A DNA stretch of 64,000 bases from NCBI GenBank assembly GCA_902791625.1, contig CADAWN010000001.1:35333-99332 (forward strand), in the 5' to 3' direction. Shown piece after piece: positions 1,478 through 63,342 of the stretch (position 1 is its first letter; each line of letters begins with the position of its first letter). Position numbers and translations under genes: made by a program. Under the pieces are notes generated by a model that worked only from the letters and a program-made list of their open reading frames with translations, made no database searches and was not told the DNA's origin. Origin of the DNA: an uncultured Erysipelotrichaceae bacterium. GTDB lineage: Bacteria > Bacillota_I > Bacilli_A > RF39 > UBA660.

Positions 1478-4027
1478 TTAATAATACTAAGGTATATACT
1501 CTATTTTTGCTTTATTAAGCAAATCAACAAAACCCCAATATAATGGCGGATAGTTAATCCACATATAATTATTAGAATTCCACCACCATTCATTTATATC
1601 TACTCCTAAGAAAGAAAAATATCTATCTAACAGCTTTAAAAACTAAATTTCATATTTTTCAACTCTATATTTTTTAAAACTATAATAAATCAACTTAGTT
1701 AACTCTGTCTAATCTAATTTTTCCTCTGAATACGACTATGGAAAATCAGGTTGTTCAAAATCCCCATCCCAAAGTCTAAATTTAATAAGTTCTTCTAATT
1801 TTGATAAATCATCTGTATCAGTTTGTTTTTCTTCAACAAGTCGATTATTTATTTCTTTAAGTTTTGTTGGATTTCTATTAGGATACTAATTTTCAATAAA
1901 ATCTTTTATAGTCTTTTTATATACTTCATTATAATTAGTTCTATTATTTTCATTAGTGCTTCCCCAGAAGAAAGGTCTAGCATCTAACCATCTTTTTCCA
2001 CCCCAAACGTCTTCATCTACTATTGGACTTATATCTATTAAAGACCAACCAGGTGGTAACTAAAACCAATGTCCTTTTTCAATATTATCAGTAAAACTAA
2101 TTTTTTCTTTATTAACTTTATAGAAATTATGCTGATTTAAAGGATTAACAATATTATCTTCTTCCCATTTTAATTCTCTTTCATTATACAACATTCTACT
2201 TTCAGAGTCAAGTATTAAGGATACAGAGTCGTTTATTTGAGATTCCATATTTTTATCGCAACCACAATCTATATTTAATATTTTATCGAAATTATTATTG
2301 TTAATATCTAGATAATCAAAAGTACAATACTATGGCAAATGAGTAATGTTAAAATTAAATTCACCATAATTTAAATCATTAGTTTGTCTAATATATTCCT
2401 ATGGATTATTTAAAAAATCATAAACAAACTCTTGATACTCACTATCATTTTTAAATATCTTTTTATCAGCATCTTCAATTGTATCATTATAATCTTTATA
2501 TCTATCTAAAATAGCTTCTTTTAATGTTTTCCAATATAATTCATTTCTTTCATCATCGGTAATACACTAATCTCTAAGTTCTTCATATCTTTCAGCATAT
2601 TGCTCACCTTGTAAATGATTAAGGAAATGAGTATTATCAGACATTAGTAAGTTTGATTGTTTATAAAATAAACGAATAAAATAACCAAGTTTTTTCTATG
2701 GTACTGGCTCGGCTATATAGCAATGCCGCGGCGCAGAGTAACCTAAATCAGTATATATTGTAGAATCTTTATGGTTATCTTTAATTAAGTTTATTAAATA
2801 TTTCTAAATTTCTGGGTCACCATTAATATCCATCTTAAAATCTTGTTGTTTTAATTGCCCTAAAACTTCCTATTGTTTACTTTCATCTAAATTGTCTAAG
2901 TGCAATTTAGTAGCTAATTTATCATCAGTTAAAGACTAAAGTTGCTCTGATAAATAATTACTAATTTTAAAGTAATGGGTTCCATATTTATATTGTTCTT
3001 CATCTTCTAATCTAAAAGTACGTAGACCAATCCAATCAACAGCCTAATCAATTGTTAATCTCTAAACATTATATCTACTTATTCTAAAAGTATAATTTGT
3101 ATTACCTCTAAAAGTATTAATTAGATTACTAAGATAAAGTTTAAAATCAATTGGTATATCACCAGGATTATAAATTAAAATTCTATTACCAATAGCAAAA
3201 TTCTTTTTACTTGGGCCTATATCCATATTATAATACTAGGCTTTATTGTATTGCGGCATATAAATTAGTTCCTAATCATAATCAAGAGTTGGAGTAGTTA
3301 ATAACTTTGCCGCGGTTTGCCAACGTGGAATATTATCCCAATAATTTCTTACATCAATTATAGTTTTAGTTCCATTTGGAGTATTAAAAAATAATTCTCC
3401 ATTCTAAACCTATTCTATTGTTGGATAGCCGCCCTTCCAAGGGGTTTCCATATTGTTAATAGTATTATAATGTTCTTTAATAGTTTTATTTAGCGGCGGC
3501 ACTGGGTTATTAATAGCATATGTATCTTCACTTGGTTTAATAATTGATTCTGGCGGAGTACATTTATAATAATCTGCCGCGCGCACTATATATTTATTAA
3601 AACAAAAAGCATAAGGATGATACATAACAAAATCAAAGTCACATTCACCTTTATAAACTCTTTGATTAGTTTCTTTATTTAAAAAACACACATAGTTAAA
3701 AGCAGGGGCACGACTTAATTTTGCACGATAAACTTTATATGGTTCTTCATCAAAAACTAAATCTTTTAATTTATCAGTTGCGAATATTTGACGAATTTTT
3801 CTTATTGTATATTCATCAAGATTATCAAAGGCTGTTTTTACTGATATTGTTCTGCTATTATATGTTTGTCCAAAATAATATTTTCCATTTCCACCTGGGA
3901 CATCCACCGAGTAATCCGTAGGCTCTGGTAATAAATTTTTATTAAATCTATCGCCAGAGGAAACTACGGTAAGGTGGAGGTCCTTAATATGAATGTTACC
4001 AAAGCGAAATCCTTTAAAATCACTCAT
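1478..4027 (-). CDS. Distal tail protein (Dit-like N-terminal domain) with a long C-terminal extension, about 849 codons, many sense TAGs
   Basis: Track ORFs 3410..4027 and 2060..2248 share one frame. I translated 2249-2745 and 3236-3410 by hand and saw only TAG interruptions. The true stop is TAA at 1478-1480. The N-terminus (MSDFKGFRFGNIHIKDLHLTVV..) resembles the siphophage Dit family, and the gene follows the TMP. Confidence 0.6.
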
Positions 4028-4048
4028 ATCTAAAACCTCCTTTTTATC

Positions 4049-7000
4049 TTATCGTTTCTTTAAAATTACATTGGAGCCAGTATATTTTGCGGCTTCAACT
4101 ATACGTTGTTCTACTTTATTCATTGCTTCATCGAGATCATAATCGTTTGCTATTGAATCAACATGAACATCAATTTGAATTGTTGTATCACCTATTGTTG
4201 TCGTAGGAAGTTGTTCTTGATTAACTGGTTGTGAAAGTATTGGTAGGTCTGCAAGTATACGTGCAGCCTCACCTATGCGGCGGGTATCTTCAGCACTTAA
4301 GAACGCTTCAGGACGAGAACGAGAGCCGTCAACCCAAGCAGGACCAGTAAAGTTTACAAGACCACCTTCTGCGAAAGCTAGGTGATTTTTAAGATATTTA
4401 TTTCGATTAATTGAATCAGTTGGTGAATTTACTTTTGGGGCATTGTCATTTATATATTTTTCAGCATCTTCTGGACTTCTAGTCATTTTTTCAACTATCC
4501 ACTTATTATCTTTTAAAAGTAATACTCCATGAACCCAATTATCAGCTTTTGTTCCTTTCTATGATTCAGGAACATATAATGTGTCACTAACCTAAGTATA
4601 TGCATTACTATAATTTGAAGTATTATGTCTTCTTAATTCTTCTGCACTAGTAAAAACTTTATACTAACCATTTCTTTCTCCTACTACAATATCTGGTTTA
4701 ATTTTAACTTCTTTATTTTGAGACGCCGCTGCTGCAGCATAATTAGAATAAGTTCCACCATCGGGAGTTTTATAAGTAGGTTGGGTAGTAGTATTACTTG
4801 AAGTACTATTAAGTTTTGTATTATTCATATGTCTACTAAGTTCTTCCATAGAGGTATAGGTACTTCCATCTGGTCCCTTATAAATCTAAGTAACAGTCTG
4901 CTATGGCTTACTCAATGCTTCTTTATATTTCGCAGCAATATCATCAAATGCTTTCTTAGATTCATTAGCAGCATCAAGGGCAGCCTATAAAGCTTCTTTC
5001 TATTTAGCAACTGCATCAACAGCATCTGCTAAAGCTTCTTTTGCTTTTTTAATTGCTTCTTTATATTCATTACCTGCTTCTTCTAAAGATTTACTAGCTA
5101 ATTCAGTAATACCTTCAGAGGTTGTTCTAACTATTTCTTCAGTTTTATCTGCAACATCTTTTAAATTCTTTTCAGAATTTTGAATACTTCTTAATACTGT
5201 ATCATCAACAGAGGCAACATATTCAGTCTTCTTTTTAAATAATTCTTTCCAATCCTCTTTTTCTTTAAGAAGCTTTTCGTCGCTCATTTTCTCCATATCG
5301 GCGACATTTTCTTTCCACCAGTTAACTAATTCATCACTAGTCTAAATTTTCTAAAGAGCTTCTGTTGCTTCTTTCATCAATGCAACATCATCAATTAATG
5401 TTTCTTGATAAGTTATTTCTAATTCTCTCTATTCTTTTTGTAATTCATAGAATTCTCTTAATTTTTCAATAATATCATCAACAGCACTATCTAAAATTGA
5501 TGTTCTATCATCTTGTACTTCTTTTTCTAAAGACTTAACTTCTACTGCATTGCCACGAGACGTATCACGACGTAATAAAGCTAATTTTCTTTCTTTATTC
5601 TCTAAATCATTCCAACTTCTTTCCTAGTCTCTTAATTTTCTTTGTTTATCAATATTTTTCTATAAAGCATTTAAATACTAATCATCAGCTTCATTCATTG
5701 CTTCATATTTAGTTCTTAAATCATCAATTTGCTTTTGATATTTTTCTCTTAAAACTTCAATCATTTTATCTTGAAGTTCTACATATCCATCCAAAGCTTG
5801 TCTCTGATGCTCTATAAATTCTTCATTTAACTATTTAACTTTATCATCATTATCCCATATTTTTGTTAAATATTCATTAGCTTTTTGTCCCTAAGTTTCA
5901 ATCCATTTTTTCAATGCTTCGGGCATTTTTGCTTTTTGCAAAGCATTCATATTAATTTTAGTACCAGTTTTTTCATCAAATACTAAATAATCGGCAAGAT
6001 TAAATTTCATTTGCCCACTATCTTCAAAGCTTTTGATTAACTTAGCAACATCATTATTATAAACTCTACCAATATTGTTATATGCAGTACGATAAACCTA
6101 ATTTTGTGCTTGAAGTTGAGCTTTTTGGTCTAATAATCCTTGTCCATATACCGCAAAATTTCTCTTTGCAGCATCTATTGTACTAGCTTTTTCTAAGTCC
6201 TTTTTGGCTCTTTCAGTTTGTTTTGTTAAGAAGTCAAGTGCGGTATTATAATTATACATACCATCAAGAGAACTTTTCCAATTAGTACCTTCTATTGTTG
6301 CTTTAAGCTCTTTTTGTTTTTCAGCAACAGTTTCAATTGCTTTTGCTAGAGATTTTTGAGCATCTGCTACTGCTCTAGTTTTGTCTTGCCAGTCTTTATA
6401 AGCTTTATCTCTTTCTTTTTTAAAATCTTCAAGAGTTTTTGTATATGTTTTATAAACTTGGTCTATTTTATTTTCGGCGCCTTTAGCCATATTAGCTAAA
6501 GATTGAATATAATCTTTATTATCTAAACTTTTTTGTAATTCTGCTCGTTGAGTTTGAATTTGTTTTAATCCAGCATTTAAATCATTTAAAGTACCAGAAT
6601 TTATTAAAGCAGTACCATTATCTTTCCAATCTATATCATACTGTGCTGATATATCTTTCCAATCTGCATTATTACGTAAAGCATTCTATTTTGCATATTC
6701 TTTGGTTAACTATTTCTATATTCTATAATTTTCTTGTTCTCCTTGACACTAATTAATAATACTTCGAATTAAGGATTCTTTTTGGTTTAATTGTTCAATA
6801 CCATTTTTAATTTGAGCTTCGATTTCTTTTGTTATTTCACTTTCATTAGTGGCTTGTTTTTTTACATCTTCATTTAATGCTTCAACATTGACCTAATAAT
6901 TTCCTTTTTCATCTGTATAAATATAGTCAGCGGGGTCAAGTTTTAATTCTTTTATTGCATCTTCAATTTTATCTTTATCAAGATAGTCAATAAAACCATT

Positions 7001-10000
7001 AGTAATATTTGAATTAATCGTATCTATTGCTGTTTTATAATTAGTAATTATTTTATTATATTTTTCTTTTATTTCTCCTTCTATTTTAGTTAAGGCACTT
7101 GTACTTAATACAGAAAAATCCCCTAAATTAGAATTTTCTAATTCATTCAAATAATTATTTACAGTCTTTTTTGCTGCTTCTTCTCCAATCTTTCCATCAT
7201 CAATAGCACTCTAGAATAATTGCATTAAAGTGTCTCTAGCTTCATTTTTTGTCATACCATCAAGCTATGATGGATCAAACTATAATAATTTATTTTGTAA
7301 TTCTGGAGTTAAATTAAAACTTTTTATTGTTTTTACAAAACCTTCATATACTTTTCCTAAATCGCCACTTTCTCCAAATTTATTTATTAAATTCTAAAAA
7401 ATTTGTCCTTGTGACTCTATAACTTCAATAGGAAGATTTTTAAAGGTTTTTGAGTTTGTTAAATATAACTTATTTAATAATTCCTCATACTATTTTACTT
7501 CTTCTATTGGAAAAGTTGCATTTAAAGTAAAATCAGTTACACCTAATTTTTTTAATTCTTCAATTTTATTTTTAAAATCTTCTATGTTGTCTTTTGAATA
7601 TTTCTTCTAATAAGTTTCTAATGCTTCATTCGATTTTCTTTCTTTTTCAGTTTGTCCCTCATTAGCCAATTCTTTATAAACATTAGATTTATATAAAGCT
7701 TCAAATTTTTCATTCAAGAATTTTTCTAATCTATCATAATCATTTTCTTCTTCATATTTATCATATTCTTCTTTAGTAACTCCAGCTTCCTCTAAAATAT
7801 TTTTTGTATTAGTACTTAAATTCTTCCAACTAGTAAGCCCCCCAATAAACTGCGCCCAATCTCCTATCCAAGCCTTACTAAAAGCACCAGTTTCTCCATT
7901 ATAATACTTTTCTCCATAATCAGCATCAAAAAGAACTCTATTTAATTTGTTTTTTTCAGAAGAACCTTCATAATGCTAAGTATCTGCTTGTTGCATTATT
8001 CTTTCTGCACGTATTCTTAATTGAGTATCACTTAACTACTTATTCTTTTCTAAACTTTCATTATTTTTTCGTAATTCTGCTAATACAGTTTCATAAGTAT
8101 CTCTATCCTCATTATGAGAATTACTCATATAACTAGCTTCAAAATCTTGTAATGTTGTATGAATCTACTATAATGTTTCTTCAGAAGCTTCATTCTTTCT
8201 AGCTAAATCTTCAACAGATTTTTTAAAATCTTCAATATTAGAACTATTTACATTTGCAATATCTATACTTAAATTTTTCTAATCGCTAGAAGATAAACTT
8301 AAAGAATTTTTTAAATCTGAATAATATTTATTTTTTATATCAAGTTCAGATTTTTTATTTACTAAAGTATTATTATAGAACTACTCTTGTAATGCTGCGG
8401 CACTCTACTATTTTTCTAATTCGGTTAAAGTCTTTTTTCTCTATTCTAATAACTAATTATTTAATTTTATTTTTCCTGTCTCTTCATCGTAAGCGGCAAT
8501 TAAAGAAGGATAATTCTCCTTCAAATTGCTAACTAAATCGCTATATTTCTTCTATTCATCCTCGGTTAAAACAACTTTATTTTTTAATTCATCATACTAT
8601 TTCTTTATATTTTCTAAATCTTTTATTGTATTTTGAGTACTTCTAGCTTCACTCTATTTCTGCTCCAATTTAGAAGTAGATTCATCCAAAGCTTTTTGAG
8701 CATTTTTTACTTGCTATTCGATAGTTTTATTTAACTCTTTTGCAGCATTTGTTTTGATAAAATTAGTTATTCCAGCTATAAAAGCAGAACCAAGAGTCGC
8801 CCCAACAGCAAGTATTGCACCATGTGGGCCGCCCATCTAGATTCCTGCCATAATATTTGGAATCAAAGAGGTACCTATTGATGCAATAACAGCACCACTA
8901 GTTGTATTAGATGCTAAACCAGATGTAATTCCAGCGGCTATACTTGTAGATATTGCAGTGCCTATAGCTTGCCCTTTTAATATGCCTTTTGCTCTAGCGT
9001 CCTCGTAAGCACGATCTATATCTTCTTCAGATGCATTTTCATTATTATTTTTATATTCTGTTGCAAAATCAGTTTTACTTTTAGGTGCAAACTTAGAACT
9101 TATAAAATTAGAACCCATAGTAAGAGTTCCACTAATAGCTTTTCTACCAAGAGTCAACCATGTTGCACCAAGTGCTACTAATCCACCAGTTGACAAATCA
9201 TTTAATTTTTCTAAAAAACCTTTAAAATTATCAAGAGTATCTTTATAAAAATCACTAGTTAATAAGTTAGTCTTAAACTATTCCCAAGTATTAGAAATCT
9301 ATTTCATTCTATATTCAACAGTATCCTAATACTTAGCAAACTGTTGACTACTTCTACCTGCTGAATTCTACGCAACATCAACCAATTGCATTGTTCTCTC
9401 ATAGTTTTCCATAAGAGCGATAAATCTAGATTGTTGTCTTGAACCTGCAGCAATGGTTGCAATATATCTCTAACTATTTCTATCAAGAGTCTTCCATTTG
9501 CCAGATAATTCAAGTAATACATCATCCATATTTCTGAACTAGCCAGCGGTATCTTTTAATGAAACTCCAACACTTTTCAGTGCTTTATCAACTTTATTAT
9601 AATCTAAATCATCAAATTCACTATCAGCAGTTCCAGCAACATTATTTTTCAATTCTGTAAATCTTGCAAGAATTGTCTTCATTGCAGTACCAAGATTTTT
9701 CGGAGCTTCCTGTGTTGCTTCTACCATAGTTGCAAGCATTGCGGTAGTTTTTTCAAAACTCATACCTGCAGAGTTTGCGATTGCGGCAGTAGCACTCATA
9801 GCTTCAGAAAGACCTTGTACGTCAACAGCAGCATGTGCTGCAACTTCTGCATATACATCAGTTACGTGTGCACCTTCGCTCATATCCATATGGAAAGCAC
9901 GAAGTGCCGCGGTCATTTGGGATGTAGCGTCCTTAAAATCCAATCCTGCTAATGTAGCAAGTTTCATTGTCTCTTCAGTTAACTACATAACCTCATTAGT

Positions 10001-14345: not shown

Positions 14346-15684
14346 AATAAATCTCATTATTACTATAATCATCTTCTACTTCATTATCATTATCAACAAA
14401 AATTTTAGTTCGAGTATACTAAGTTTTCTATGGTACAACTTTTGTTCCACCATTTTTTTCATCTTCTTTAACATTGAACTATCGTAACTCGATAGGCGAT
14501 TCCTCATCTTTTACTAGAACTTCTAAATTCATTGAAAAAACTGAAGCGCCGCCGTCAGCTCTAAGTTCAATTTTCTAATCTACTGGTATCGTAGCATGAT
14601 TAATTACAAACTAATATCTCTAATCTTTTGTACTATTTCTTTCTCTTATATAGGTTTCTCCAACAACTTTATATTCTCCAGGAAAAATATTCCCATCTAA
14701 AACTAATGATTTTCCAATAAAGCTTTCATCATTTAAAACTGGCTGAATAGTTCTGCTCCATTTGTAATAAACAGTACCTTTTTTTAAATAAAATAATTTT
14801 GTACGTTTTGTTCCATCTTCATCAACATCAAAATCTTCAGTTTTATATTTAATCTAGCCCCCTTCTAAAGTCCTAAACCATTCTTTATCAAATAGCCCTA
14901 AAGGTTGCATAGTCTTTTCATCATAAAAAATAAAATAATTAGAACTTTTATCATTATTATAATATTTATACAAGTTTTTTATTTGTTGTTCTATATCAAT
15001 GAATAATCCTTCATCTTCAGTTACACAACTTTTTTCCATTATATCTATTGTCTAGATATTATAATGTTCGTTTTTAAAAGAGTAGAAATCATCAACTTCA
15101 TTAATTTTTTCAAAAATTGCTTTTATTAACTCTTCTGAAAATTTCTCTGTTCTATTATAATATTTATCTAAAATTATTTTTCGATTTTCGGCAACATAAG
15201 GCTAATTAATATTTGCTTTTTGCAATGGTAGTGATTCTTTATATTTTAAGCTCTCTTTTTCTTTTTCATAAACTATATTAAAAAGTAACTCTTGCTCTTT
15301 TTCATTTAATTTAGGTGACTAAAAAGCATATTTAGAATAGTTATTATCATAATAACTATTAACTATATTAAGTTTTTTTATGAGCGAAATATATTTGGTA
15401 ATTTTAGTTCGTGTCCAACCAAAAGACATTTCTAAAGATGCCGGACTAAATAATGCATCTTCAATTTTTACATTATATTTTTTACTATGCTCCCAATACT
15501 ATATCTACTAGTTTCCATATCCACCATTATGGCTAGTTTTATTTGCAGATTGAGTTATATCAGAAACCTTTAAAGTATCTAGAAATAAAACGGGTATATA
15601 TAGTTCTTCATCCCCTATTTTTATTATATCATAGAAAGTAACATCAGCAACTTCTTTTATTCCATATTTCTAAAATAAATTCAT
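14344..15684 (-). CDS. Major-tail-protein-like paralog P4, 446 codons, TAG-containing
   Basis: ATG at 15682-15684 overlaps the P3 stop (ATGA). The N-terminus MNLF*KYGIKEVADVTFYDI..PVLFLDTLKVS..EDALFSPAS is shared with P1-P3. The frame matches track ORF 14854..15039, and the stop is TAA at 14344. Confidence 0.6.
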
Positions 15685-17666
15685 GTTGTTACCTCCTCAT
15701 CTATATTAATAAATTCATAGTTCGCTAATTCGCTCTCATTAACGAAGCCTTTAATTATATTAGAATTATTAACTTTAGCTATAATTAAATCTTCTTTTTC
15801 TAATTTTCCAATAATTTCTTTATAATACTAGTCTACAGTTTTTCCAATATAGTCATCATTTTCTGGTGTAACAAGACGAAGATAAGACCACTGTTGCTAA
15901 TCAATTATAGGTATAGCGCAATCCAATGGTAAACAAAAGACTTGATTCGATGTGGGGTGCATAATTACTATATTATATTTATCATTAATAGGTAAATCTT
16001 CTATTCTTTCTAAATAATCCATTGGTGAATATTTATTTTGCTAATTATTTGCCAAATCTTTTTCTAAATTATCTTTATAAATAGTTAAACGTCCTATATC
16101 ACCAGTTTCACTAGTTAAAGCTTTCATCCTTATATTAACTGTTGTTGCTTCGCCAGCAGCCTATAAACTTAAATTAATATTATCTAATAAAGCACAATTA
16201 TATAATTCAATCTAATAGTGCATATCTTCACCATATCTATCTCTTATATAAGTTTCTCCTATTAGTTTAAAATTATAAGGGAAATTCTTTTTATTTATAG
16301 TTACGCTTTGTCCAATAATTGTCCCCTTATCTGCTATTTCTCTAGTCCATTTGTAATAAGGTTCTCCTTTTTCAATAACGGCATAATTACCTGTAATAAC
16401 TGTACCATCTTTTTTTGTATAACTGTATTCATTAGGTTCATATGGCTTCATTGTATTAGGATTGTAAAAAACAGTTAATTTTTTCTTATTATATTCTGGC
16501 AAAAGACTAAAATTATAATTTTTAAGATTTTTATCAACATCAATAGCAAACCTTTGCTCTGCTATTTTATCATCAAACTAATCTAGTATTTTTCTATCTT
16601 CAATTCCACTATTAATAGGATTTATAAAATTAGAAACTGTGTTTATATTATAATTAAAATCTTCTACTATATAAAAAGTGCCTAAAAGAACCTTTGCTTT
16701 TAAAGTTTTTTCTTCCTCGTGTATATCAGTTATTTTACAAGAAACAGTAGTATATAAATCTACATAGGATAGCCATTTTTCCTTCTATTCTTCTTTCTAT
16801 TCAAATAAAATTCTTTTGTTGCTATTATTATCAAGAGTATGATAACATATGGTCACATCATCATCTGCCGCGATATTATCAAAATCAGCAGACTCTGGAA
16901 TTAAAGAAACATTACAAGATAGCCATTTATATTCATGAATATTATCAATAATTATTTTTTTATTACCATTGTTATCATAACTAGCGTTAAGAAGATTGGT
17001 TTCAAAATTCTCAAAATCATTTATTTGTAATTCCGCATTAACTAAATTATTTCCTACTTTATCTAAATCACTAAAATATAATCTATCATAAATATTTATA
17101 GTCTAATCTTTTACCTTAATAGGTGAATTATTTTTAGTAACGGTTACTCCCTTAAAATGTTTAAGTTTATCACCAACAATATATTCTTCCTAATTTTCTG
17201 CTTTATATTTAAAATCTCCATTAGAAACTTTTATATAAGCATACATAACTTTTTCTTCACAAGGAACATATACCTAAACCCAATCTACTCCTTCTGGCTA
17301 TTGCTCTGTTCTTTCTATTGTGTAAATATTTTTATCTTCATATATATAAGGATTCCACTTACCTCTTATTTTAATCTTAGATAATCCATATAAACCACCC
17401 CACATTAAACTCTAACTTGCGGGAGTATATAAAGCATCTTCTAAATTAAAGGTAACTGTTTTTCCATAATTCCAAATAACCTGTTCTGCATTACCTAGAC
17501 CGCCGCGAGCAGATGTCTGCTCGCTAGTCTAGTCTAATGATGATATTTTTAATGTATCAAAATGTAATACAGGTATATATATATCATCATCATATTTATT
17601 TTTTGCTATACCGTAAAGAGTTACATTTGCAACTTCTCTAATACCATACTATTCAAAAATATTCAC
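15681..17666 (-). CDS. Major-tail-protein-like paralog P3, 661 codons, TAG-containing
   Basis: GTG start at 17664-17666 follows GGAGGCG. The N-terminus reads NIFE*YGIREVANVTLYGI. The frame matches track ORF 16212..16502, and the stop is TGA at 15681. Confidence 0.6.
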
Positions 17667-17682: not shown

Positions 17683-19641
17683 TTACATTACTATTATTTC
17701 TGAACTACCATCTATTGGAGTAAAACAACCATTTTCTTCTTGAATCATTTTTTGTCTTGTCTTATAAGTATTAATTTCCATTAAAACTTTAGATTTAGGT
17801 TGTGCAACTTCCATATTTAAATTAAATACTGTAGGTTCACCATCTGTCTATAAAGTTAATGTCTGTTCTGATTTAATTTTTGCCTATGGAATTACAATCT
17901 ACATATGCTCATCTTCAGATGTATCCCTATTTCTAATATAAGTTTCTCCAACCATCATATACATACCAGGCCATACATCACTTTTAACAGTAATCTTTCT
18001 AGCATCTAACTATTGATTATCATCGACAATAGTAAGAGATTTTATATAATAAGGTTCACCGCTATGGAACCAATAATCATCTAAAAATGGCTTCATAGTT
18101 CTTGGATTTACATAAGCCCATAATTTACCATCAAAACTTCTTTCACTATTTTTATCATCATAAATATTCATTATAGTAGTATCTTCATTTACTTTAGCAG
18201 TAACTTCTGATACTGTGAAAGTAGGCTCTTCTTCTATATCAGAAATCTTCTGTTCTTGTTTATTTTTATCTTTATAAGTAATAGTATAAGTTGTTGTAAT
18301 GATAGGCTCGCCGCCTTCTTCTGGTTCCTCTTCATGAGTAATTTTTTCTATAATTGGAACAGTAATACTTTCTATTGTTTCCTCTGTACCAGCATTAACA
18401 TATTTTATAATATAAACAGGAGTAATAGGCTGTTCCATATAAGAAGTTTTAATACTAATAATATCCTATTCATACTTTGTGATTAAGAAATAAATCAATT
18501 CATTAATACCATCAAATTTAATCCACATATCAAGACCTTTAAATTGATTTACATTAACTCCTTCTTTTGGTTTATACCAAATCGCTTCTACAACTTCTTT
18601 ACCTTCTTTTGTTACTGTAGTTTGTACTCCAACAAAAGCGTGATAATTATTATTATTATCTACTACAATAGCAAGATAGTCACAATCCTTTATTGACCTT
18701 TCATCATCTTTATTTTGAGCAGGTATATTATAAGCATTTTTTTTATCTTCGCCAGTTCCTGCAACCAAAACTGTATCACCTATAGTAGGAGATACATTAG
18801 GTTCATACCGTGTTAAATAATTTTTTAAGCTATTAATTTCTTCATTCTCTTCCTATTCTTTATCAACCGTATAAGCATCAAAAATAATATACGGTTTTAA
18901 ATTATTTGGCTCTTTTGCAGGTCCAATCTTATAAATAATAGCATCTTTAAAGTTTGAGTATGCAGGTGCCTCTCCATTAAATACTGAAACTTTACTATTC
19001 CAATCTATAGGATAGCTTCTGCCCTAAATATCAAAAAATCTATCAGGAACCTAAGCAATAGAACGTACTCTAGATTCAATAATAAGTCTCCAACGGTAAC
19101 TTCTATCTAAAGTCTATCCTACACCCTAAACTCTAGTGCCGTCAACAACATCTGAATTGATTAAATAATCATTATCTTTTGTCATTATTTTATTTTTATT
19201 ACTTTGTGGTAATAACTTACAAACTAAATTATCATTAGGGTCATTACTACTTCTAGGATAGATTGCACTATACATTCTTGACATTTTTCTTACTGGATTA
19301 GAACAAGTTTTAGATTCAGAGTTTATATCTATATGTCCATTTTTCCAATCAGAACTTAATATTCCTCCCCAACATAATCCTAAAGAAGCTGGAGTGCATA
19401 AAGCATCTTGTAAATTTATATTTAAAGTTTTGTTATAGTCCCAACTTATTAATCTAGCATTACCCTGGCCACCCTATGCCCAAGTACTTTCACCAGTCTA
19501 TTCTGTTGTAGAAATCTTTAAAGTATCTAAATACAATGCTGGAACATAATAAACGTCACCACTACCATCTGTTTTTTTATGTATACTATATATGGTTACA
19601 TCAGCAACCTCTTTTATACCATATTGCTCGAATATATTCAA
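17683..19641 (-). CDS. Major-tail-protein-like paralog P2, 652 codons, TAG-containing
   Basis: TTG start at 19639-19641 follows GAGGTGAAAGGA. Track ORFs 18010..18438 and 18466..18768 are in frame. I checked every codon in 17683-18010 and 18769-19641 and found only TAG interruptions. The stop is TAA at 17683. Confidence 0.75.
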
Positions 19642-19733: not shown

Positions 19734-22082
19734 TTAATATTCAGTTGCGCCGATTGCATCCTTGTCAACTACACCATCAAGTGAAGTCTTAAAGAGTTCA
19801 GCATCGTCAAGAATATCAAGATTTTCAGTATCCTTAACCATTGTAGAACCGTCATTCTGCTCTTCATTGTCAACCATATTATACTTAATAAGTCTAACCA
19901 TTACTTTATCATCTGGACGAAGAACTTTAAGTTCCATATCAAATACAGAAGGATCTCCATCTGCTTCCATTGTAATTGTTTGCTCTCCGCCAATTTTAGC
20001 TTCTGGAATATTAATCTGGAATCTCTCTTCCTCTCCAGTTGATTTAGACTTAATAAATGTATCTCCAACAACCTTATATGTTCCAGGGAACTTATCTGCA
20101 GAGATTTCAATCATATCACCAAGGCTTTCTCCATCATAAGCGACAGAACGAGTAAACTTAATGAACTCTTCACCTTCAGCGATTGGAGTACCATCTGCAT
20201 AAGGTTCCATTGTTGCTGGGTCAATAAATACAGTACAAGCAAACATATCAGCCTCAGAAGGATAACCATTAGCATTTCCACCAGGTACAATAAAGCTTCT
20301 TGCAGCAGTAAATTTCTTTGTTACATCAAGCTTCTTAACTGGCTTAGTAGCTTTAGAAAGTTCATTTCCATCGGCACCAAACATTACAGCCATAGAAGCT
20401 GGTGAGAACAGTGCATCTTGAAGTGTAAGAGTAATCTCCTTACCGAAGTCCCAACCCATCAACTGACCATTTCCATGTCCACCAGTAGCAAATACTTCTT
20501 CAGCAGTTGCATTTAATGTAGAAACTTTTAATGTATCAAGGAAAAGAACTGGTTTATATCTCTTAACTTTCTTAAGGGTTTTATGAATTTTAATTCCCTT
20601 TACAGTACAAGTTGCTTCAAAAGTTTCATTATTAACAGTAACTTCTGTTGTATGGATAAGACCACTAGCAACAAGTTGTTTTGCCTGATTATCATTTACA
20701 AAATTACCTTCTGTAATCATCCAAGCAACCTTAGTTAAATCTTTCTTACCATTTCTATTAGCAACAAAGATAAGTCCAGAAGTTCCAATAATTACAAGTG
20801 CAAGGAATTCAGTTCCAGCAAAAATCTTATCTTGGTAATAAAGTCTGTTACCTGCTTTATCTAAGAATTCAAAGATACCATCTTCATCAAGAGCAAGTTT
20901 CTTTGCGTTCTTATTCTTTAACAGATAAATATATGCACCAGCGGCAGTATCTACTGAACCGTCAACCTTAACATAAATTGCTCTATTAGATATTTCAGAA
21001 CCAGTAGTTAACTCTACATCTAAAGTCTTTCCAGTTGCACTACCTGTTGCAGCAATTTCAGCAACGGCTTCTTTTACAGCCTTTAAGTTGTACTTAGCAT
21101 GAATATCGCCAACTTGTGTTCCATCTACTGAGAATTGATAACTATTGCCGTCAACTAAATCAGTATCTCCAGGATTAGGCTTATCATCGCTAACTTTATA
21201 TCCGCCTTGAATTGCATCTATACCAGAAGCGGCATTAATCTCACCATAATCAAGTACTAATTTCTTCTGTTTTAATGCATCAATAGCATCATTAATAGAG
21301 TTATGAACACCATCGTCCCACATTACTGCATTTGCAATAGCTTTATCTAACTTATCAGCAAACATAGTAGCATAACTTTTTGCGCCAGTTGCAGTAAAGA
21401 AATCTACAGTACCTACGCCATTGTTTCTACTATACTTATAACCAAGATATTTAGGATTATAATAACCCATTTCATCTTCAACTACAAGCTCAGCATAATC
21501 ATCATATGTAATATCATATGCTTTTGCTACTTTATAAGTTTTTAATTTAATTATTTCTTCATTGATTTCCTTTAAATCATAAGTGTCTTCTGTAAATTTA
21601 TTAGCTAAACCTACAACAACAACCTTCTCTTTTGAATAAGGGTCTGCGGCAAAATTATCATTAAAAGTAAGATTACCAAATTTTGTTGCAGAATCTTCAA
21701 AAGCATATCTTACACCAGTTTTAGCAATTATATTCTGTCTTTTTGCAAATAATTGACATACTTGCTCTGGATAAGTAAATTCATGAGATACAGCAGTTTC
21801 ATCTATATCTGTTTCTGGATCATCGTCATCTTCGTGTTTATAAGTAACACCAGTAATAATATCAGCGTCAACAAAAACATAAGCTTTAAAGCCATCTTCT
21901 GTTCCAACACCATTATCATCTAAAGGATAAACATTTTTTAATTCAAGGCAGCTTCTTAAAATTGAACCATCAGTAATTTTTCTTTGAGATTCATAAGCTT
22001 CTTCTTTCTGTTCAATCTTGTAAAAAGTAACGTCACAAACGTCCTTAATACCATATTTCTCAAAAAGGTTTTGACTAGCCAT
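19734..22082 (-). CDS. Putative major tail protein P1 (782 aa), free of TAG
   Basis: This is an intact track ORF with AAGGAGG upstream. It shares N-terminal (NLFEKYGIKDVCDVTFY), central (PVLFLDTLKVS..GGHGNGQLMGWDFGKEITLTLQDALFSPAS) and C-terminal (FPGTYKVVGDTFIK..MEADGDPSVFDMELKVL) blocks with P2-P4. It lies between the connector genes and the TMP and is visibly more GC-rich than P2-P4. Confidence 0.6.
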   Translation of the reverse strand: MASQNLFEKYGIKDVCDVTFYKIEQKEEAYESQRKITDGSILRSCLELKNVYPLDDNGVGTEDGFKAYVFVDADIITGVTYKHEDDDDPETDIDETAVSHEFTYPEQVCQLFAKRQNIIAKTGVRYAFEDSATKFGNLTFNDNFAADPYSKEKVVVVGLANKFTEDTYDLKEINEEIIKLKTYKVAKAYDITYDDYAELVVEDEMGYYNPKYLGYKYSRNNGVGTVDFFTATGAKSYATMFADKLDKAIANAVMWDDGVHNSINDAIDALKQKKLVLDYGEINAASGIDAIQGGYKVSDDKPNPGDTDLVDGNSYQFSVDGTQVGDIHAKYNLKAVKEAVAEIAATGSATGKTLDVELTTGSEISNRAIYVKVDGSVDTAAGAYIYLLKNKNAKKLALDEDGIFEFLDKAGNRLYYQDKIFAGTEFLALVIIGTSGLIFVANRNGKKDLTKVAWMITEGNFVNDNQAKQLVASGLIHTTEVTVNNETFEATCTVKGIKIHKTLKKVKRYKPVLFLDTLKVSTLNATAEEVFATGGHGNGQLMGWDFGKEITLTLQDALFSPASMAVMFGADGNELSKATKPVKKLDVTKKFTAARSFIVPGGNANGYPSEADMFACTVFIDPATMEPYADGTPIAEGEEFIKFTRSVAYDGESLGDMIEISADKFPGTYKVVGDTFIKSKSTGEEERFQINIPEAKIGGEQTITMEADGDPSVFDMELKVLRPDDKVMVRLIKYNMVDNEEQNDGSTMVKDTENLDILDDAELFKTSLDGVVDKDAIGATEY

Positions 22083-25385: not shown

Positions 25386-26531
25386 TTATGGATTTGGCTT
25401 ATAACCGTTTGTAGTCTTACCAGTCCAGTTTGCTACAAATTTAGTAGGATACTGTGTAGGATAAGCTTGTGTATCCTGAAGGTCTGTATTTACATATACA
25501 CCCCAATCATTATTGGTAAGAATAGCTACACCAACTTTCTTATAAGCTTCTACTTCCATTGTTCTATCTCTACCCTTGAAATCATCAACAATAGTATCGC
25601 CTTCGAAAACAATCTTAACTGGCTTACTCTTACCATTAGGGAATACATAAGCAAGAGCAGGATTTACTACAGTAGTAGTATTGTTATCGTCAGTAAATGA
25701 CTGTGGAATTTCAACAATAGGGTTGCCACGGAAAGTCTTAATTCTACCATACTGAGCAATCTCTTCAATGTTTCTAGGATTATATACAGGTGTTGCAACA
25801 CCAGTAGCACCAGAATTTCTTGCCCAAGCCATTGGCATACCAATTGCCTCAGGTCCCATAGCCTGTACGAATTCAGGAGCAGCGAAAATTGTAACTCCGC
25901 CATCACCATAAGTACCAGCAATGGTTACAAGTTGCTGCATACCATCTGGATCAAAGCCGGCACTAATAACCTTATTTCTTGCAGGACGATCATCAGCATT
26001 AACTGCGGCAATAAGAGCTTGCTGAATTAAACCATAAATTGCCTCAACCATACCCTCAAGAAGAATTTCAGCAACTTCTGCAACATCCTCTTGACCACAA
26101 ATATATCTTTCAAAGTCAATAATACCAGTACCACCAATTGCGCTAGCACTTACTTCAAAAGTATCGCTATCAAGTCTGAAAGCCTCATATACACCAGAAG
26201 GTGCAACTGCTGTTACAAACTGCTTAGCTCTACGTCTACCTCTCTTAACTACAAACTGTGCTTTTTCATTATTTGCAACCTGCTTAATTTCAGCAAACAT
26301 TGACATAAATTCTTCTACAGTCTTAGGAAGAACTTCATCAAAAGCCTCTTGCATAATTTCAAAAATATCTAATCTATTTCTACGATAAGAATTAAAATCA
26401 TAAGCAAGCTCATGTAAAGCATTAGAGGTTGCCTTCTTTATATCTTCAACTTGATATTTAGTAGGATTTGGAGTTGTTCCTCTGAATGAATGAACAATTA
26501 AATCCTTAATCATTTGCTTTTTATTCTCCAT
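25386..26531 (-). CDS. Major capsid protein (HK97-fold type), 381 aa, TAG-free
   Basis: Intact track ORF with AAAGGAGGT upstream. It follows the scaffold gene. The sequence has MCP character (..AVAPSGVYEAFRLD..GGVTIFAAPEFVQAMG..). Its GC content is elevated and its codon usage looks optimised. Confidence 0.75.
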   Translation of the reverse strand: MENKKQMIKDLIVHSFRGTTPNPTKYQVEDIKKATSNALHELAYDFNSYRRNRLDIFEIMQEAFDEVLPKTVEEFMSMFAEIKQVANNEKAQFVVKRGRRRAKQFVTAVAPSGVYEAFRLDSDTFEVSASAIGGTGIIDFERYICGQEDVAEVAEILLEGMVEAIYGLIQQALIAAVNADDRPARNKVISAGFDPDGMQQLVTIAGTYGDGGVTIFAAPEFVQAMGPEAIGMPMAWARNSGATGVATPVYNPRNIEEIAQYGRIKTFRGNPIVEIPQSFTDDNNTTTVVNPALAYVFPNGKSKPVKIVFEGDTIVDDFKGRDRTMEVEAYKKVGVAILTNNDWGVYVNTDLQDTQAYPTQYPTKFVANWTGKTTNGYKPNP

Positions 26532-52435: not shown

Positions 52436-52465
52436 ATTAATATTTTACTCAAAAAATTCTACTAT

Positions 52466-53224
52466 CTAATTATTTAACAAATCATTCTTTAAGTCCTCAG
52501 AAATCTTTTGTCCCTCTGTATTCAAATACTTAACCGCTTCTCCGCCATTGGTATAATAATTAACTGACTTTAATTCAAATACACTTACTTTTGTACCCAA
52601 ATTAGTCGTTTCAATTGTAATTGTATAGTCTATTAAATCAAGTTTTTTAAGCCATATTAGCCCATTAATAATAGCTCTATTATTATCTCTATCTTTACTA
52701 AGTTTTAAAAGACCCCTTAAGTCTGCAATTGTAAATACCCTATCACAAGAACTCATATAACAAAAACGTTCTTGCATTTCTGCTAATAATAAATATAGTT
52801 TCAATTCCTACTCAGAAACGGCATAGTCATACTAAATTCTATTTAGTGTTTCTCGCGGCATAATACGATAAGGAGTTGCCTTTGGAATACTGTAGTAAGT
52901 CGCACCATCTTTCTTACGTAACATAAATTCTTTATCCCAAGTTAGGTCTAAGTGCCGCGGCCCTTCGTATTTTATTAAACCATGTTGTTCCAATAGATTC
53001 CAGTACTTTTTAATAGTATTTGGATGCATATGTAATATTTCTTTTATTTTATTAACAGTAAAGTCTTTATGTGAGAATACTCTAGGTTTATTCTTTCCAT
53101 TAAAAGTTGAAATTGAAACCAAGTATACATATAATCGCATTGAATTCCTTTGTACTTCAACTTCATCTGAAACAATCGGTAAGTTTTCTCCTGTGGCTTT
53201 TAACTGTTTTTCATTATTACGCAT
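52466..53224 (-). CDS. Replication-initiator-like protein (two winged-helix-like halves) joined across two in-frame TAGs
   Basis: Track ORFs 52832..53233 and 52466..52804 are in the same frame. They are separated only by TAG-YDYAVSE-TAG (TAGs at 52832-52834 and 52808-52810). The second half has no usable RBS. ATG at 53224 follows AGGAGGTGA, and iterons lie immediately upstream. Confidence 0.5.
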
Positions 53225-53323
53225 AAATATCACCTCCTATTATATAAGTAGGATTGAAAGACTTTTTCTCTAAAAAAATCTACACCGATTAAGATTTTAC
53301 TATAATGTTTTATTCATCTTCAT

Positions 53324-61099: not shown

Positions 61100-61175
61100 T
61101 CTTATATCTCCTTTTTATTTTCTATAAATATTATAGCAATTTTTTTTTAAAAAGTCAAGAATTTTAAATTAAAAT

Positions 61176-62051
61176 TTATTTTAATATTAGCTATTTTAAA
61201 TAATCTTCATTTATTTTATTAAAATCCCAATAAGGAATTTCAATTAACTTAATATTGTTTTCTTTACACCACTATCTTTTTATATTATCCCTATTCTTTT
61301 GTTCTTCAAACTATTTTTCTCCACCAAAATACTATATTGCTTTATAATGCTATTCACCCTGATACTCTATGCAACAATTATAATTTGGTAAAAAGAAATC
61401 AAATCTTAAATTAGATTTATATTTTAAATCTCTAAAAGTCTTTTGCTGAACAAAACTAATTTTCAAAGAAGATAAAATACTATTTATTTTATCTTCTCCC
61501 TTAGAAGCTTTATAACAACCACAAGAAATAGTTGCCCCTGTTTTAAGATGATTTCCTCTAACAGAGACAATATTTCCGCAATCACATTGACATATCCAGT
61601 AAATTTCTCTATTTATTTTTGAATTATCTCTTTTTAAAACTGTTAAATAGCCAAATTTTTGTCCCGTTAAATCTATAAGTGTTTGTTTTGAAACTATTTC
61701 TTTTTGTAAGCAACCACAACTTTTAGTGTTATGACTTTTAAGACTACTACCTTTAACAGAAATAATATTTCCACAATCACATTGACATATCCAATATATT
61801 GTTCTATTTTTCTTTGAAAAATCTTGTCTTAAAACCATTAAGCGATCAAATTTCTAACCTGTCAAATCATTTATTTTTGAACAACCGCAAGTTTTTGTAT
61901 ATCCTTTTTTAAGACTATCTCCTCTAACAGAAATTGTGTTTCCACAATCACACTAACATAACCAATAAACCTTACCTTTTTTTGAAAAATCTCTTTCTAA
62001 AACAGTTAAATGACCAAATTTCTAACCTGTTAAATCAATAAATTTTCCCAT
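61176..62051 (-). CDS. Homing-endonuclease-like protein: three zinc-ribbon repeats plus a PD-(D/E)XK-like C-terminus, 291 codons, at least 8 sense TAGs
   Basis: ATG at 62049-62051 follows AAGGAGGAA. I hand-checked the codons for 61938-62051. The frame matches track ORF 61350..61838. The C-terminus [19 protein letters not shown].. resembles the endonuclease fold. The stop is TAA at 61176. Confidence 0.6.
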
Positions 62052-62073
62052 ATTTAATTCCTCCTTAAAATTT

Positions 62074-62283
62074 TTAACCCAAAACATTTTTGCAGATAGG
62101 GCAGATAGGATAGCCTACCCTATTGCTTTTAAAATATGGGAATTCATCTTTGTAAAGCGGCTCTTCACATTCTGGACAATAGAAGCAAGGAAAGTCATTA
62201 AAGTCTCCATCCAGATGATTACCAAACTTATTTAAAATAAACTGTCTTACTTCACTCCATTTATACTCAAAGCCTGCTTTCAT
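62074..62283 (-). CDS. Zinc-ribbon protein (69 aa)
   Basis: The track ORF contains CPEC..CPIC. Confidence 0.6.
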   Translation of the reverse strand: MKAGFEYKWSEVRQFILNKFGNHLDGDFNDFPCFYCPECEEPLYKDEFPYFKSNRVGYPICPICKNVLG

Positions 62284-62531
62284 TAATATTCTCCTTTCTT
62301 AAAAAACGAAATATCTCTAACATAGAAGACATCTTCTACGCAAAAATCTGCATTATCAGAATAGTTATAAGACTCTTCAAGTTCATTAAGACACTCCTGC
62401 ATTTCATCAGAAGTTGAGTCTTTATATTCAGTTAGGATATAATTCTTACAAAATTTATAAGCATCTTCTCTTGACTCAAAAGCCCACTGCTCAAATTCAT
62501 TTACTATACTAACCATCCATATTGAACTCAT
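62283..62531 (-). CDS. Hypothetical acidic protein (82 aa)
   Basis: Track ORF whose stop overlaps the next start. Confidence 0.6.
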   Translation of the reverse strand: MSSIWMVSIVNEFEQWAFESREDAYKFCKNYILTEYKDSTSDEMQECLNELEESYNYSDNADFCVEDVFYVRDISFFKKGEY

Positions 62532-62587
62532 TTTTTAACCTCTCTTTCATTTTTCTATAATTATTATAACAAAAATTTTAAGAAAAG

Positions 62588-62905
62588 TCAATTATTTTTT
62601 TTGGTAATAAAATCATAAAGGTCGCCAAAATCCTTAACATTAGGATGTTCGTCTCCTACTGTAATATTATCACTAAATTTATCAAAGTCACACTCGCACT
62701 CCCATACAAAATAGCCAAGCCAATCGCTTTTATCATCAATAGCTTCACTTACAGTACGAATAAAAAGAACTTCATAAGAAACTTCATCAAACAATTCATA
62801 AACTCCAAAACCAAAAAGGTCATAAAGTTTACTCATTGTTTCGTTAGCCTTTTCTCTATTATGCATAAACTCTTGCATAGCATTTTTAAATATATATTTA
62901 TCCAT
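62588..62905 (-). CDS. Hypothetical acidic protein (105 aa)
   Basis: Track ORF. Confidence 0.6.
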   Translation of the reverse strand: MDKYIFKNAMQEFMHNREKANETMSKLYDLFGFGVYELFDEVSYEVLFIRTVSEAIDDKSDWLGYFVWECECDFDKFSDNITVGDEHPNVKDFGDLYDFITKKNN

Positions 62906-63173: not shown

Positions 63174-63200
63174 TCTATTACTTCCTTTACTTTTATTCAA

Positions 63201-63274
63201 CACCCTTAGAAGGACTCGAACCTTCACTCTTGACATTCGTAGTGTCCTGACTTCTCCAGTTAGTCGATAAGGGT
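63201..63274 (-). tRNA. tRNA-Arg (anticodon ACG)
   Basis: The minus strand reads ACCCTTA-TC-GACT-AACTGGAGA-AGTC-A-GGACA-CTACGAA-TGTCA-AGAGT-GAAGG-TTCGAGT-CCTTC-TAAGGGT-G. It has a perfect 7-bp acceptor stem, a 4-bp D stem, a 5-bp T stem with a TTCGAGT loop and a 7-nt anticodon loop whose centre is ACG. There is one G-A mismatch at the top of the anticodon stem, and no CCA is encoded. Confidence 0.75.
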
Positions 63275-63342
63275 ATATTTGCTCGTCTTTCCGAGCCGTC
63301 AACAGTTTTACAAGACTGAAACTACTGTCGCAGTCAATGCTG

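Follow-up and report, generated by a model that had tools for sequence, protein, structure and literature searches.

A homing-endonuclease-type gene with eight in-frame TAG codons in a code-15 phage

The gene at 61176..62051 on the minus strand of the window very probably encodes an intact, selected and free-standing protein of the homing-endonuclease type, with three Cys-rich repeats and a Vsr-like nuclease domain, in a phage that uses genetic code 15. It is carried by a cassette with a host-type promoter, and its TAG codons would confine the nuclease to the late, code-switched phase. (The window is the whole 64,000-nucleotide stretch that was analysed, positions 35333-99332 of contig C1; coordinates are those of the window unless C1 or another piece is named.) The gene's eight TAGs serve as ordinary Gln codons under code 15, a reading that comparison with homologous DNA and proteins supports for the phage as a whole.

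The TAG-interrupted frame and the residue at its TAG codons

Contig C1, 163,214 bp long and 29.6% GC, is a phage: it encodes a portal, the large terminase, virion proteins, an endolysin and a tail fibre. The best named match of its large terminase is that of Geobacillus virus E3 (38%), and large Bacillus, Enterococcus and Lactococcus phages of the YonF type are more distant. The other contigs of the bin are of ~25% GC and translate well with the standard code. Annotation with table 11 costs half of the coding capacity of C1, long-ORF coverage being 0.54 in contrast to 0.83 when TAG is taken as sense; the only other contig on which TAG as sense lengthens ORFs is the 12-kb C35 (0.59 to 0.94).

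The endonuclease gene has 291 codons, an ATG start with an AAGGAGG ribosome-binding site 8 nt 5′ of it, and a single TAA at the end. Its in-frame TAGs are codons 10, 33, 66, 234, 240, 247, 260 and 287, which appear on the plus strand as CTA at 62022-24, 61953-55, 61854-56, 61350-52, 61332-34, 61311-13, 61272-74 and 61191-93, respectively. A preliminary description, made from the sequence, had quoted such in-frame TAGs (YWLC*CDCGN), and re-reading of the sequence confirms them. With 10 CAA/CAG codons in the same gene, the TAG share of its Gln-type codons is 44%, equal to that of virion genes. The frame contains no internal TAA or TGA, compared with 20 and 31 in the other two frames; 5000 shuffles gave a mean of 23 for the endonuclease frame and never reached 0. 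Comparison with a 95%-identical ortholog on a relative's contig, L003, gives a dN/dS of 0.18: the gene is under purifying selection. Interruption by TAG only in a gene under purifying selection, one of the marks by which membership of code 15 was judged, is thus present. Table 11 calls the gene as a 162-aa fragment, and its recoding matters mainly for correct annotation.

A mobile endonuclease gene in decay, by now a pseudogene whose TAGs are true nonsense mutations, is a scarcely credible reading. Decay is common among homing endonuclease genes, and a search of the assembly turned up no suppressor tRNA. However, a decaying gene would not be expected to hold eight TAGs yet none of the 23 internal TAA or TGA codons predicted by chance, nor to show a dN/dS of 0.18, and one of the TAGs takes the place of a Gln that is almost invariant in the nuclease motif. 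The ortholog has seven of the eight as TAG and the remaining one as CAA, and on C1 itself more than 280 TAGs lie within essential virion genes.

The identification of the TAG-encoded residue as Gln had been put forward from internal repeats of this gene and from tail paralogs. Formal alignment bears out that there are three copies of one 55-aa repeat, pairwise 61–65% identical with z = 31–35 against shuffles, all on the minus strand: repeat 1 at 61875..62039 (residues 5-59; DLTG-TAG-KFG ... YWLC-TAG-CDCGN ... CGC), repeat 2 at 61707..61871 (residues 61-115; DLTG-TAG-KFD ... YWIC-CAA-CDCGN ... CGC) and repeat 3 at 61512..61676 (residues 126-180; DLTG-CAA-KFG ... YWIC-CAA-CDCGN ... CGC). TAG does face Gln codons of the sister repeats, as had been said, and it does so in two columns. 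From copy 1 to copy 3 the codons are TAG, TAG and CAA in the G-x-K column, and TAG, CAA and CAA in the C-x-C column. The latter takes K, Q, R or L in different members of the family, which leaves the G-x-K column as the one that is diagnostic for Gln. The caveat that had been attached, of a coincidence of only two sites, therefore holds in part: the repeats are real, while the evidence from them is limited to two columns. Taken alone, the internal repeats are thin evidence that TAG is Gln and would only suggest it. The tail-paralog comparison had been quoted correctly, with NIFEQYGIKEV in the gene at 17683..19641, whose N-terminus is LNIFEQYGIKEV, and NIFE(TAG)YGIREV in the gene at 15681..17666, which begins VNIFE(TAG)YGIREV.

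Support for Gln comes from ortholog DNA, from TAG-free homologs, from database homologs translated with table 11 and, for the late genes, from a standard-code relative. The ortholog in L003 shares seven of the eight TAGs; at codon 260 TAG here is CAA there, and at codon 203 CAA here is TAG there. Homologs of the endonuclease read at the DNA level comprise 63 distinct viral ORFs, 35 of them TAG-free and 28 TAG-bearing. In the TAG-free ORFs Gln stands opposite codon 234 in 30 of 35, codon 66 in 14 of 33, codon 260 in 16 of 35 and codon 10 in 7 of 16, and over all TAG cells of the 35 it accounts for 77 of 210, against 31 for Lys. When the residues opposite TAG are tabulated in homologs, as the preliminary description had proposed, Gln leads and no other residue predominates. 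The recoded homologs, 28 in number, have TAG and CAA in the same columns, codon 234 being CAA in 14 and TAG in 11, and CAA codon 90 of the present gene being TAG in 13 and CAA in 6. Database homologs of 376 aa, whose table-11 status was verified on their DNA, also have Gln at the conserved TAG sites. (The closest homologs of ~290 aa, P0001, P0006 and P0009, have Gln at all eight sites and were not counted, as their contigs show that these are translations with TAG taken as Gln.)

For late genes the comparison is with L027, a standard-code relative 50–70% identical, over 17 genes. Of its residues opposite 82 late-gene TAGs, 42 are Gln and 7 are Lys. The CAA/CAG positions of the phage face 40% Gln in L027, and those of each other residue class at most 5%. 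The likelihood against L027 is lnL −176 for Gln and −253 for Lys. Over 16 relatives the codons opposite TAG (n = 1099) are led by CAA (285) and CAG (137), with TAG itself at 123 and Lys codons at 102.

The reading of TAG as some other residue (Lys, Glu, Ser, Tyr, Trp or Leu), or as a mixture, is very improbable. Lys, Glu, Asp or Ser does occur opposite TAG in homologs at the variable codons 33, 240 and 247, and in one relative, G005, the body of the CUA tRNA is not Gln-like: its variable arm is long and it has G73. But ordinary CAA/CAG columns scatter to Lys, Glu and Arg likewise: in the TAG-free homologs 28% of the residues opposite CAA/CAG codons of the endonuclease gene are Gln, and Lys, Arg and Glu are scattered there as they are opposite its TAGs. 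Gln is the best residue for the endonuclease TAGs under both likelihood models and is ahead of Lys by 88 lnL units there and by 77 in the late genes. Relatives' own TAGs also have Gln as the top residue opposite in all five relatives tested. With Gln as the assignment, the gene is a clean DNA-level case of TAG/CAA interchange in a code-15 phage of a Firmicutes-type lineage.

The protein and its optional cassette

An AlphaFold model of the endonuclease (pLDDT 83) has three small beta modules followed by an alpha/beta C-terminal domain. That domain, encoded by 61179..61511 (−) and holding five of the TAGs, is Vsr-like, of the PD-(D/E)xK superfamily, on Foldseek and PHROG matches. For the C-terminal 110 residues, the best specific PDB matches in Foldseek are to Vsr, 1cw0_A with probability 1.00 (TMt 0.47) and 1vsr with 0.99 (TMt 0.45); sequence search gave no significant match of the endonuclease to any PDB chain. 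Within 27 homologs D218, E229, H235, D255 and K258 of the nuclease domain are invariant, and codon 234, a TAG, is the near-invariant Gln234 of the IEYQG-x-QH motif, conserved in at least 90%. In the same set the cysteines of the CxCxC...CGC pattern are invariant or near-invariant in every one of the three repeats; in repeat 1, C32, C34, C36 and C55, together with G56, are invariant and C57 is near-invariant.

Matches in PHROGs are to phrog_9084, ‘homing endonuclease’ (E 1e-32), and to phrog_374 and phrog_559, both labelled HNH endonuclease. Pfam gives a weak match to DUF2726 alone. No Pfam HNH family is matched, and six-frame searches of the genome with PF01844 and PF13392 miss the locus. An HNH identity was rejected on the lack of a match to an HNH model and on the Vsr-like fold, and the PHROG label probably misnames this architecture. 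On the model and the motifs the protein is a probable PD-(D/E)xK/Vsr-type nuclease with three probable zinc-ribbon repeats for DNA contact. Nuclease activity is predicted, the Cys-rich repeats would bind zinc, and the protein may be active in homing. The fold of its C-terminal domain matches that of the E. coli very-short-patch repair endonuclease (1cw0, 1vsr), with an acidic/His motif on the central sheet. However, identity is 16–17%, the phage protein has three extra N-terminal Cys-rich repeats, and Vsr is the product of a repair gene whereas here the gene is a mobile one of a phage. C1 has no paralog of it, and C35 has only a relative of the C-terminal domain.

On the sequence comparisons that follow, the gene is taken to be a free-standing homing-endonuclease-type gene on an optional cassette. 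The cassette is of ~1.4 kb (61166..62530, −) and holds an 82-aa gene (62283..62531, −), a 69-aa Cys4 gene (62074..62283, −), whose CxxC...CxxC protein is encoded directly 5′ of the endonuclease, and the endonuclease gene itself. (The 69-aa gene is co-inherited with the endonuclease in the relative L003.) Another relative, L043, is syntenic: homologs of the flanking genes are in the same order, without the 82-aa, 69-aa and endonuclease genes, and 63 bp separate its counterparts of the 105-aa and 92-aa genes, an empty site. The cassette is thus present in L003 and absent from L043 at a fixed site between conserved genes. In the relative L016 three tandem paralogs of the endonuclease (3922-4776, 5392-6075 and 7576-8259) lie within 4.4 kb, and all have in-frame TAGs.

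At the head of the cassette (62563..62591, −) is a sigma-70-type promoter, TTGACT-17-(TG)TATAAT, an 11/12 match with an extended −10. A second copy of the same element (61130..61158, −) is just 3′ of the endonuclease gene and drives the 92-aa gene. Two promoter copies therefore flank the optional cassette, and a single stretch of ~68 bp in L043 (3930-3997) aligns to both 62597-62530 and 61165-61098. A cassette bounded by repeated promoter elements could move via recombination between promoters and not by homing. As no terminator-like site was found between the head promoter and the endonuclease, the endonuclease is the last gene of a cassette under a host-type promoter.

Search for the decoder, and tRNA genes split in the anticodon loop

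More than 500 in-frame TAGs in the phage must be read, and the assembly has no CUA tRNA to do it. Neither C1, C35 nor the rest of the bin yielded a tRNA with a CUA anticodon, intact or split by a short insert, to ARAGORN, the Rfam tRNA model, custom scans or BLAST with the suppressors of relatives, and when a long intron within the suppressor gene was allowed for, a permissive scan yielded AT-rich noise alone. C1 has no terminal overlap and its assembly is not closed, so a CUA tRNA gene may sit in unassembled sequence. The bin has two class-I release factors, presumably including RF1, on host contigs and none in the phage. Endonuclease expression would depend on suppression of UAG.

C1 has 19–20 tRNA genes, of which only tRNA-Arg(ACG), at 63200-63275, is within the window. 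Two hits were set aside. A 94-nt ‘tRNA-Pyl(cta)’ that ARAGORN reported at low stringency inside a late gene, on the opposite strand, was rejected as a false positive. The Rfam tRNA match at L006 3399-3456 (−), equivalent to C1 102598-102655, is not a suppressor but what is left of a tRNA-Phe(GAA), whose acceptor stem does not pair; its D, anticodon and T arms are intact, and it is beside tRNA-Arg(UCU) and near a GIY-YIG gene. Two of the tRNA genes are odd. A real tRNA-Leu should carry a long variable arm; the tRNA at L007 6528-6600 (−), C1 125326-125400, has a 75-nt class-I body with the anticodon UAG, where relatives have a normal Leu(UAG) of 80–85 nt. The other, at L007 8508-8584 (−), C1 127305-127384, is an 80-nt tRNA-Gln(UUG) with an enlarged variable region. 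Non-coding RNAs are also found by the tRNA cluster: a full-length ROOL RNA (Rfam RF03087, 239 bits) at L007 758-1354 (−), C1 119557-120153, adjoins it, and a skipping-rope RNA (RF02924, 47 bits) at L006 15664-15778 (−), C1 114863-114977, is near it.

Among the relatives, G001-G003 have intact tRNA(CUA) genes, and in G004 and G005 the tRNA(CUA) gene is split by an insert. With the suppressor interrupted in this way, tRNA finders report none in either genome. The G004 suppressor aligns end to end with the tRNA(CUA) of G003, apart from a compensatory change in the anticodon stem and an insert of 45 nt that falls precisely between CUCU and AAA of the loop. In G005 (L042 451-590) removal of a 46-nt insert gives CUCUAAA. 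The body of this tRNA, with its long variable arm and G73, is Ser-like rather than Gln-like; despite this the TAGs of G005 face Gln most often (7 of 18). The U1-A72 pair of the relatives' suppressors was considered as a mark of Gln identity and dropped, as U is the first base of most tRNAs in this AT-rich phage.

Such splitting extends to other phage tRNA genes. The inserts, of 45–68 nt and inside the anticodon loop, are shaped like a tRNA acceptor/T-arm minihelix: they start with a 5′ G, continue with a helix of 6–8 bp and a hairpin of 5 bp closed by a 7-nt loop, and have ACCA or GCCA at the 3′ end. Excision of exactly G...NCCA restores the loops CUUUCAC for Glu in the phage itself, CUCUAAA for the amber suppressors of G004 and G005, and those of Leu(UAA), Lys (CUUUUAA) and Ile (CUUAUAA). 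The split Leu(UAA), Lys(UUU) and Ile(UAU) genes belong to relatives. The insert-bearing tRNA genes of relatives are at L041 3340-3461 and 4158-4291, L040 782-915, L042 451-590, L096 660-802 and L116 2567-2692. That of the phage itself is at L007 1518-1652 (−), C1 120316-120452; its exons join to CUUUCAC, a loop of the Glu(UUC) type and not CUA, and it was rejected as the suppressor on that account. A further tRNA-like gene of G005 (L042 1969-2036) has an anticodon arm that ends in a 3-nt loop, and so is without an anticodon. Literature searches found no paper on inserts of this kind in suppressor tRNAs.

It is conceivable, if rather unlikely, that the lineage switches to TAG as Gln with no conventional suppressor gene. 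The assembled ~175 kb is without a CUA tRNA, and in G004 and G005, the closest complete relatives, the split suppressors would gate the code switch by an undescribed step of tRNA excision and ligation. The decoder in the present phage would then be something else, with the 80-nt tRNA-Gln(UUG) and the 75-nt class-I tRNA with the anticodon UAG as candidates. If this is true, the excision-and-ligation step would unlock all late genes and endonuclease genes that bear TAG. Of the loose ends, the more interesting ones are the absence of a suppressor here and the splitting of suppressors by inserts in relatives.

Proposed timing of endonuclease synthesis in a recoded genome

Phages of code 15, in which TAG is Gln, are already published from the gut (Borges et al., bioRxiv 10.1101/2021.08.26.457843; Peters et al. 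2022, PMC9523058; the phAss-1 group of Babkin et al. 2023, PMC10607447), as is a recoded homing endonuclease in an early gene. The present phage is like them in having TAGs in virion, lysis and other late genes, TAG-free early genes and a host with the standard code, in the alignment of TAG with Gln of standard-code homologs, and in having relatives that carry tRNA(CUA). It is unlike those with a suppressor in that no CUA tRNA was found in the assembly, and recoded genomes without a suppressor tRNA gene are on record (Babkin et al. 2023, PMC10607447). Placement in Phassvirus failed, the large terminase being 29.4% identical to that of phAss-1; this identity, 29%, points to another lineage, that of large SPbeta/YonF-type phages.

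Within C1 the early genes are TAG-free and the late genes TAG-rich. The exceptions in the early block are the endonuclease gene and the DnaD-like initiator gene at 52445..53233 (−), which has 2–3 in-frame TAGs, at its hinge. The preliminary description had the endonuclease gene in an otherwise standard-code block, a statement that holds only in part, as the initiator gene lies in the same block. In the late block two large genes are TAG-free, a 381-aa probable major capsid protein (25386-26531, −; phrog_4088) and a 782-aa virion protein (19734-22082, −; phrog_2729), whose three paralogs hold 12–15 TAGs each. The most abundant phage products may avoid the recoded codon.

The setting of the endonuclease gene suggests how its synthesis could be timed. 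Its mRNA would be made early, from the host-type promoter. Before UAG is read through, translation would stop at codon 10, after nine residues, and full-length endonuclease would be made only once read-through occurs, which would limit the nuclease to the late phase. Early transcription coupled with late-only translation has a parallel in T4, whose intron and free-standing homing endonucleases (such as I-TevI) are transcribed with early genes and remain untranslated until late, the block being an RNA hairpin over the ribosome-binding site. In place of such a hairpin, the block for the C1 endonuclease would be in-frame amber codons. In Agate phages an early gene contains another counterpart, an intron endonuclease recoded with TGA, whose in-frame stops were argued to delay the enzyme until late (Borges et al., bioRxiv 10.1101/2021.08.26.457843). 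Both are homing endonuclease genes in an early-gene setting with in-frame recoded stops. They differ in that the Agate gene has TGA (Trp) and is intron-borne, whereas here it is TAG (Gln) in a free-standing gene within a promoter-flanked cassette. Unlike that single case, all ten endonuclease-like genes of the C1 phage are recoded.

These ten are seven GIY-YIG genes, with TAG inside the domain, two HNH-like genes and the gene in the window. The other nine are at C1 14098-14952, 18306-19175, 21770-22642, 103074-103922, 120476-121363, 123931-124311, 126406-127209, 139286-140317 and 140985-141743. (Several of the endonuclease-like genes abut or overlap tRNA genes.) All 10 have at least 2 TAGs (range 2–14), versus 44 of 178 other ORFs (Fisher p = 2e-6).

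A lesser but real possibility is that the TAGs have no regulatory role. They would then come from neutral CAG/CAA-to-TAG drift in an AT-rich code-15 phage, in genes that are dispensable before the code switch; on the same tentative footing, selfish endonucleases would either fall in that late-tolerated class or have come by transfer from other recoded phages. In favour of drift, TAG makes up 45% of the Gln-type codons of the ten endonuclease-like genes, equal to the 48% of late genes; the closest ~290-aa homologs are all in other TAG-recoded phages; orthologs gain and lose TAG freely; and the non-structural PhoH, methyltransferase and initiator genes also have TAGs. But drift is compatible with TAG as Gln and differs only on whether late-only translation is selected, and the contrast of 10 of 10 endonuclease-like genes with 44 of 178 other ORFs fits either view.

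Amber recoding of every homing-endonuclease-like gene in the genome, wherever it is placed, extends what had been a single published observation, and offers a single genome in which to test the idea that selfish nucleases are kept silent by recoding until the late phase.
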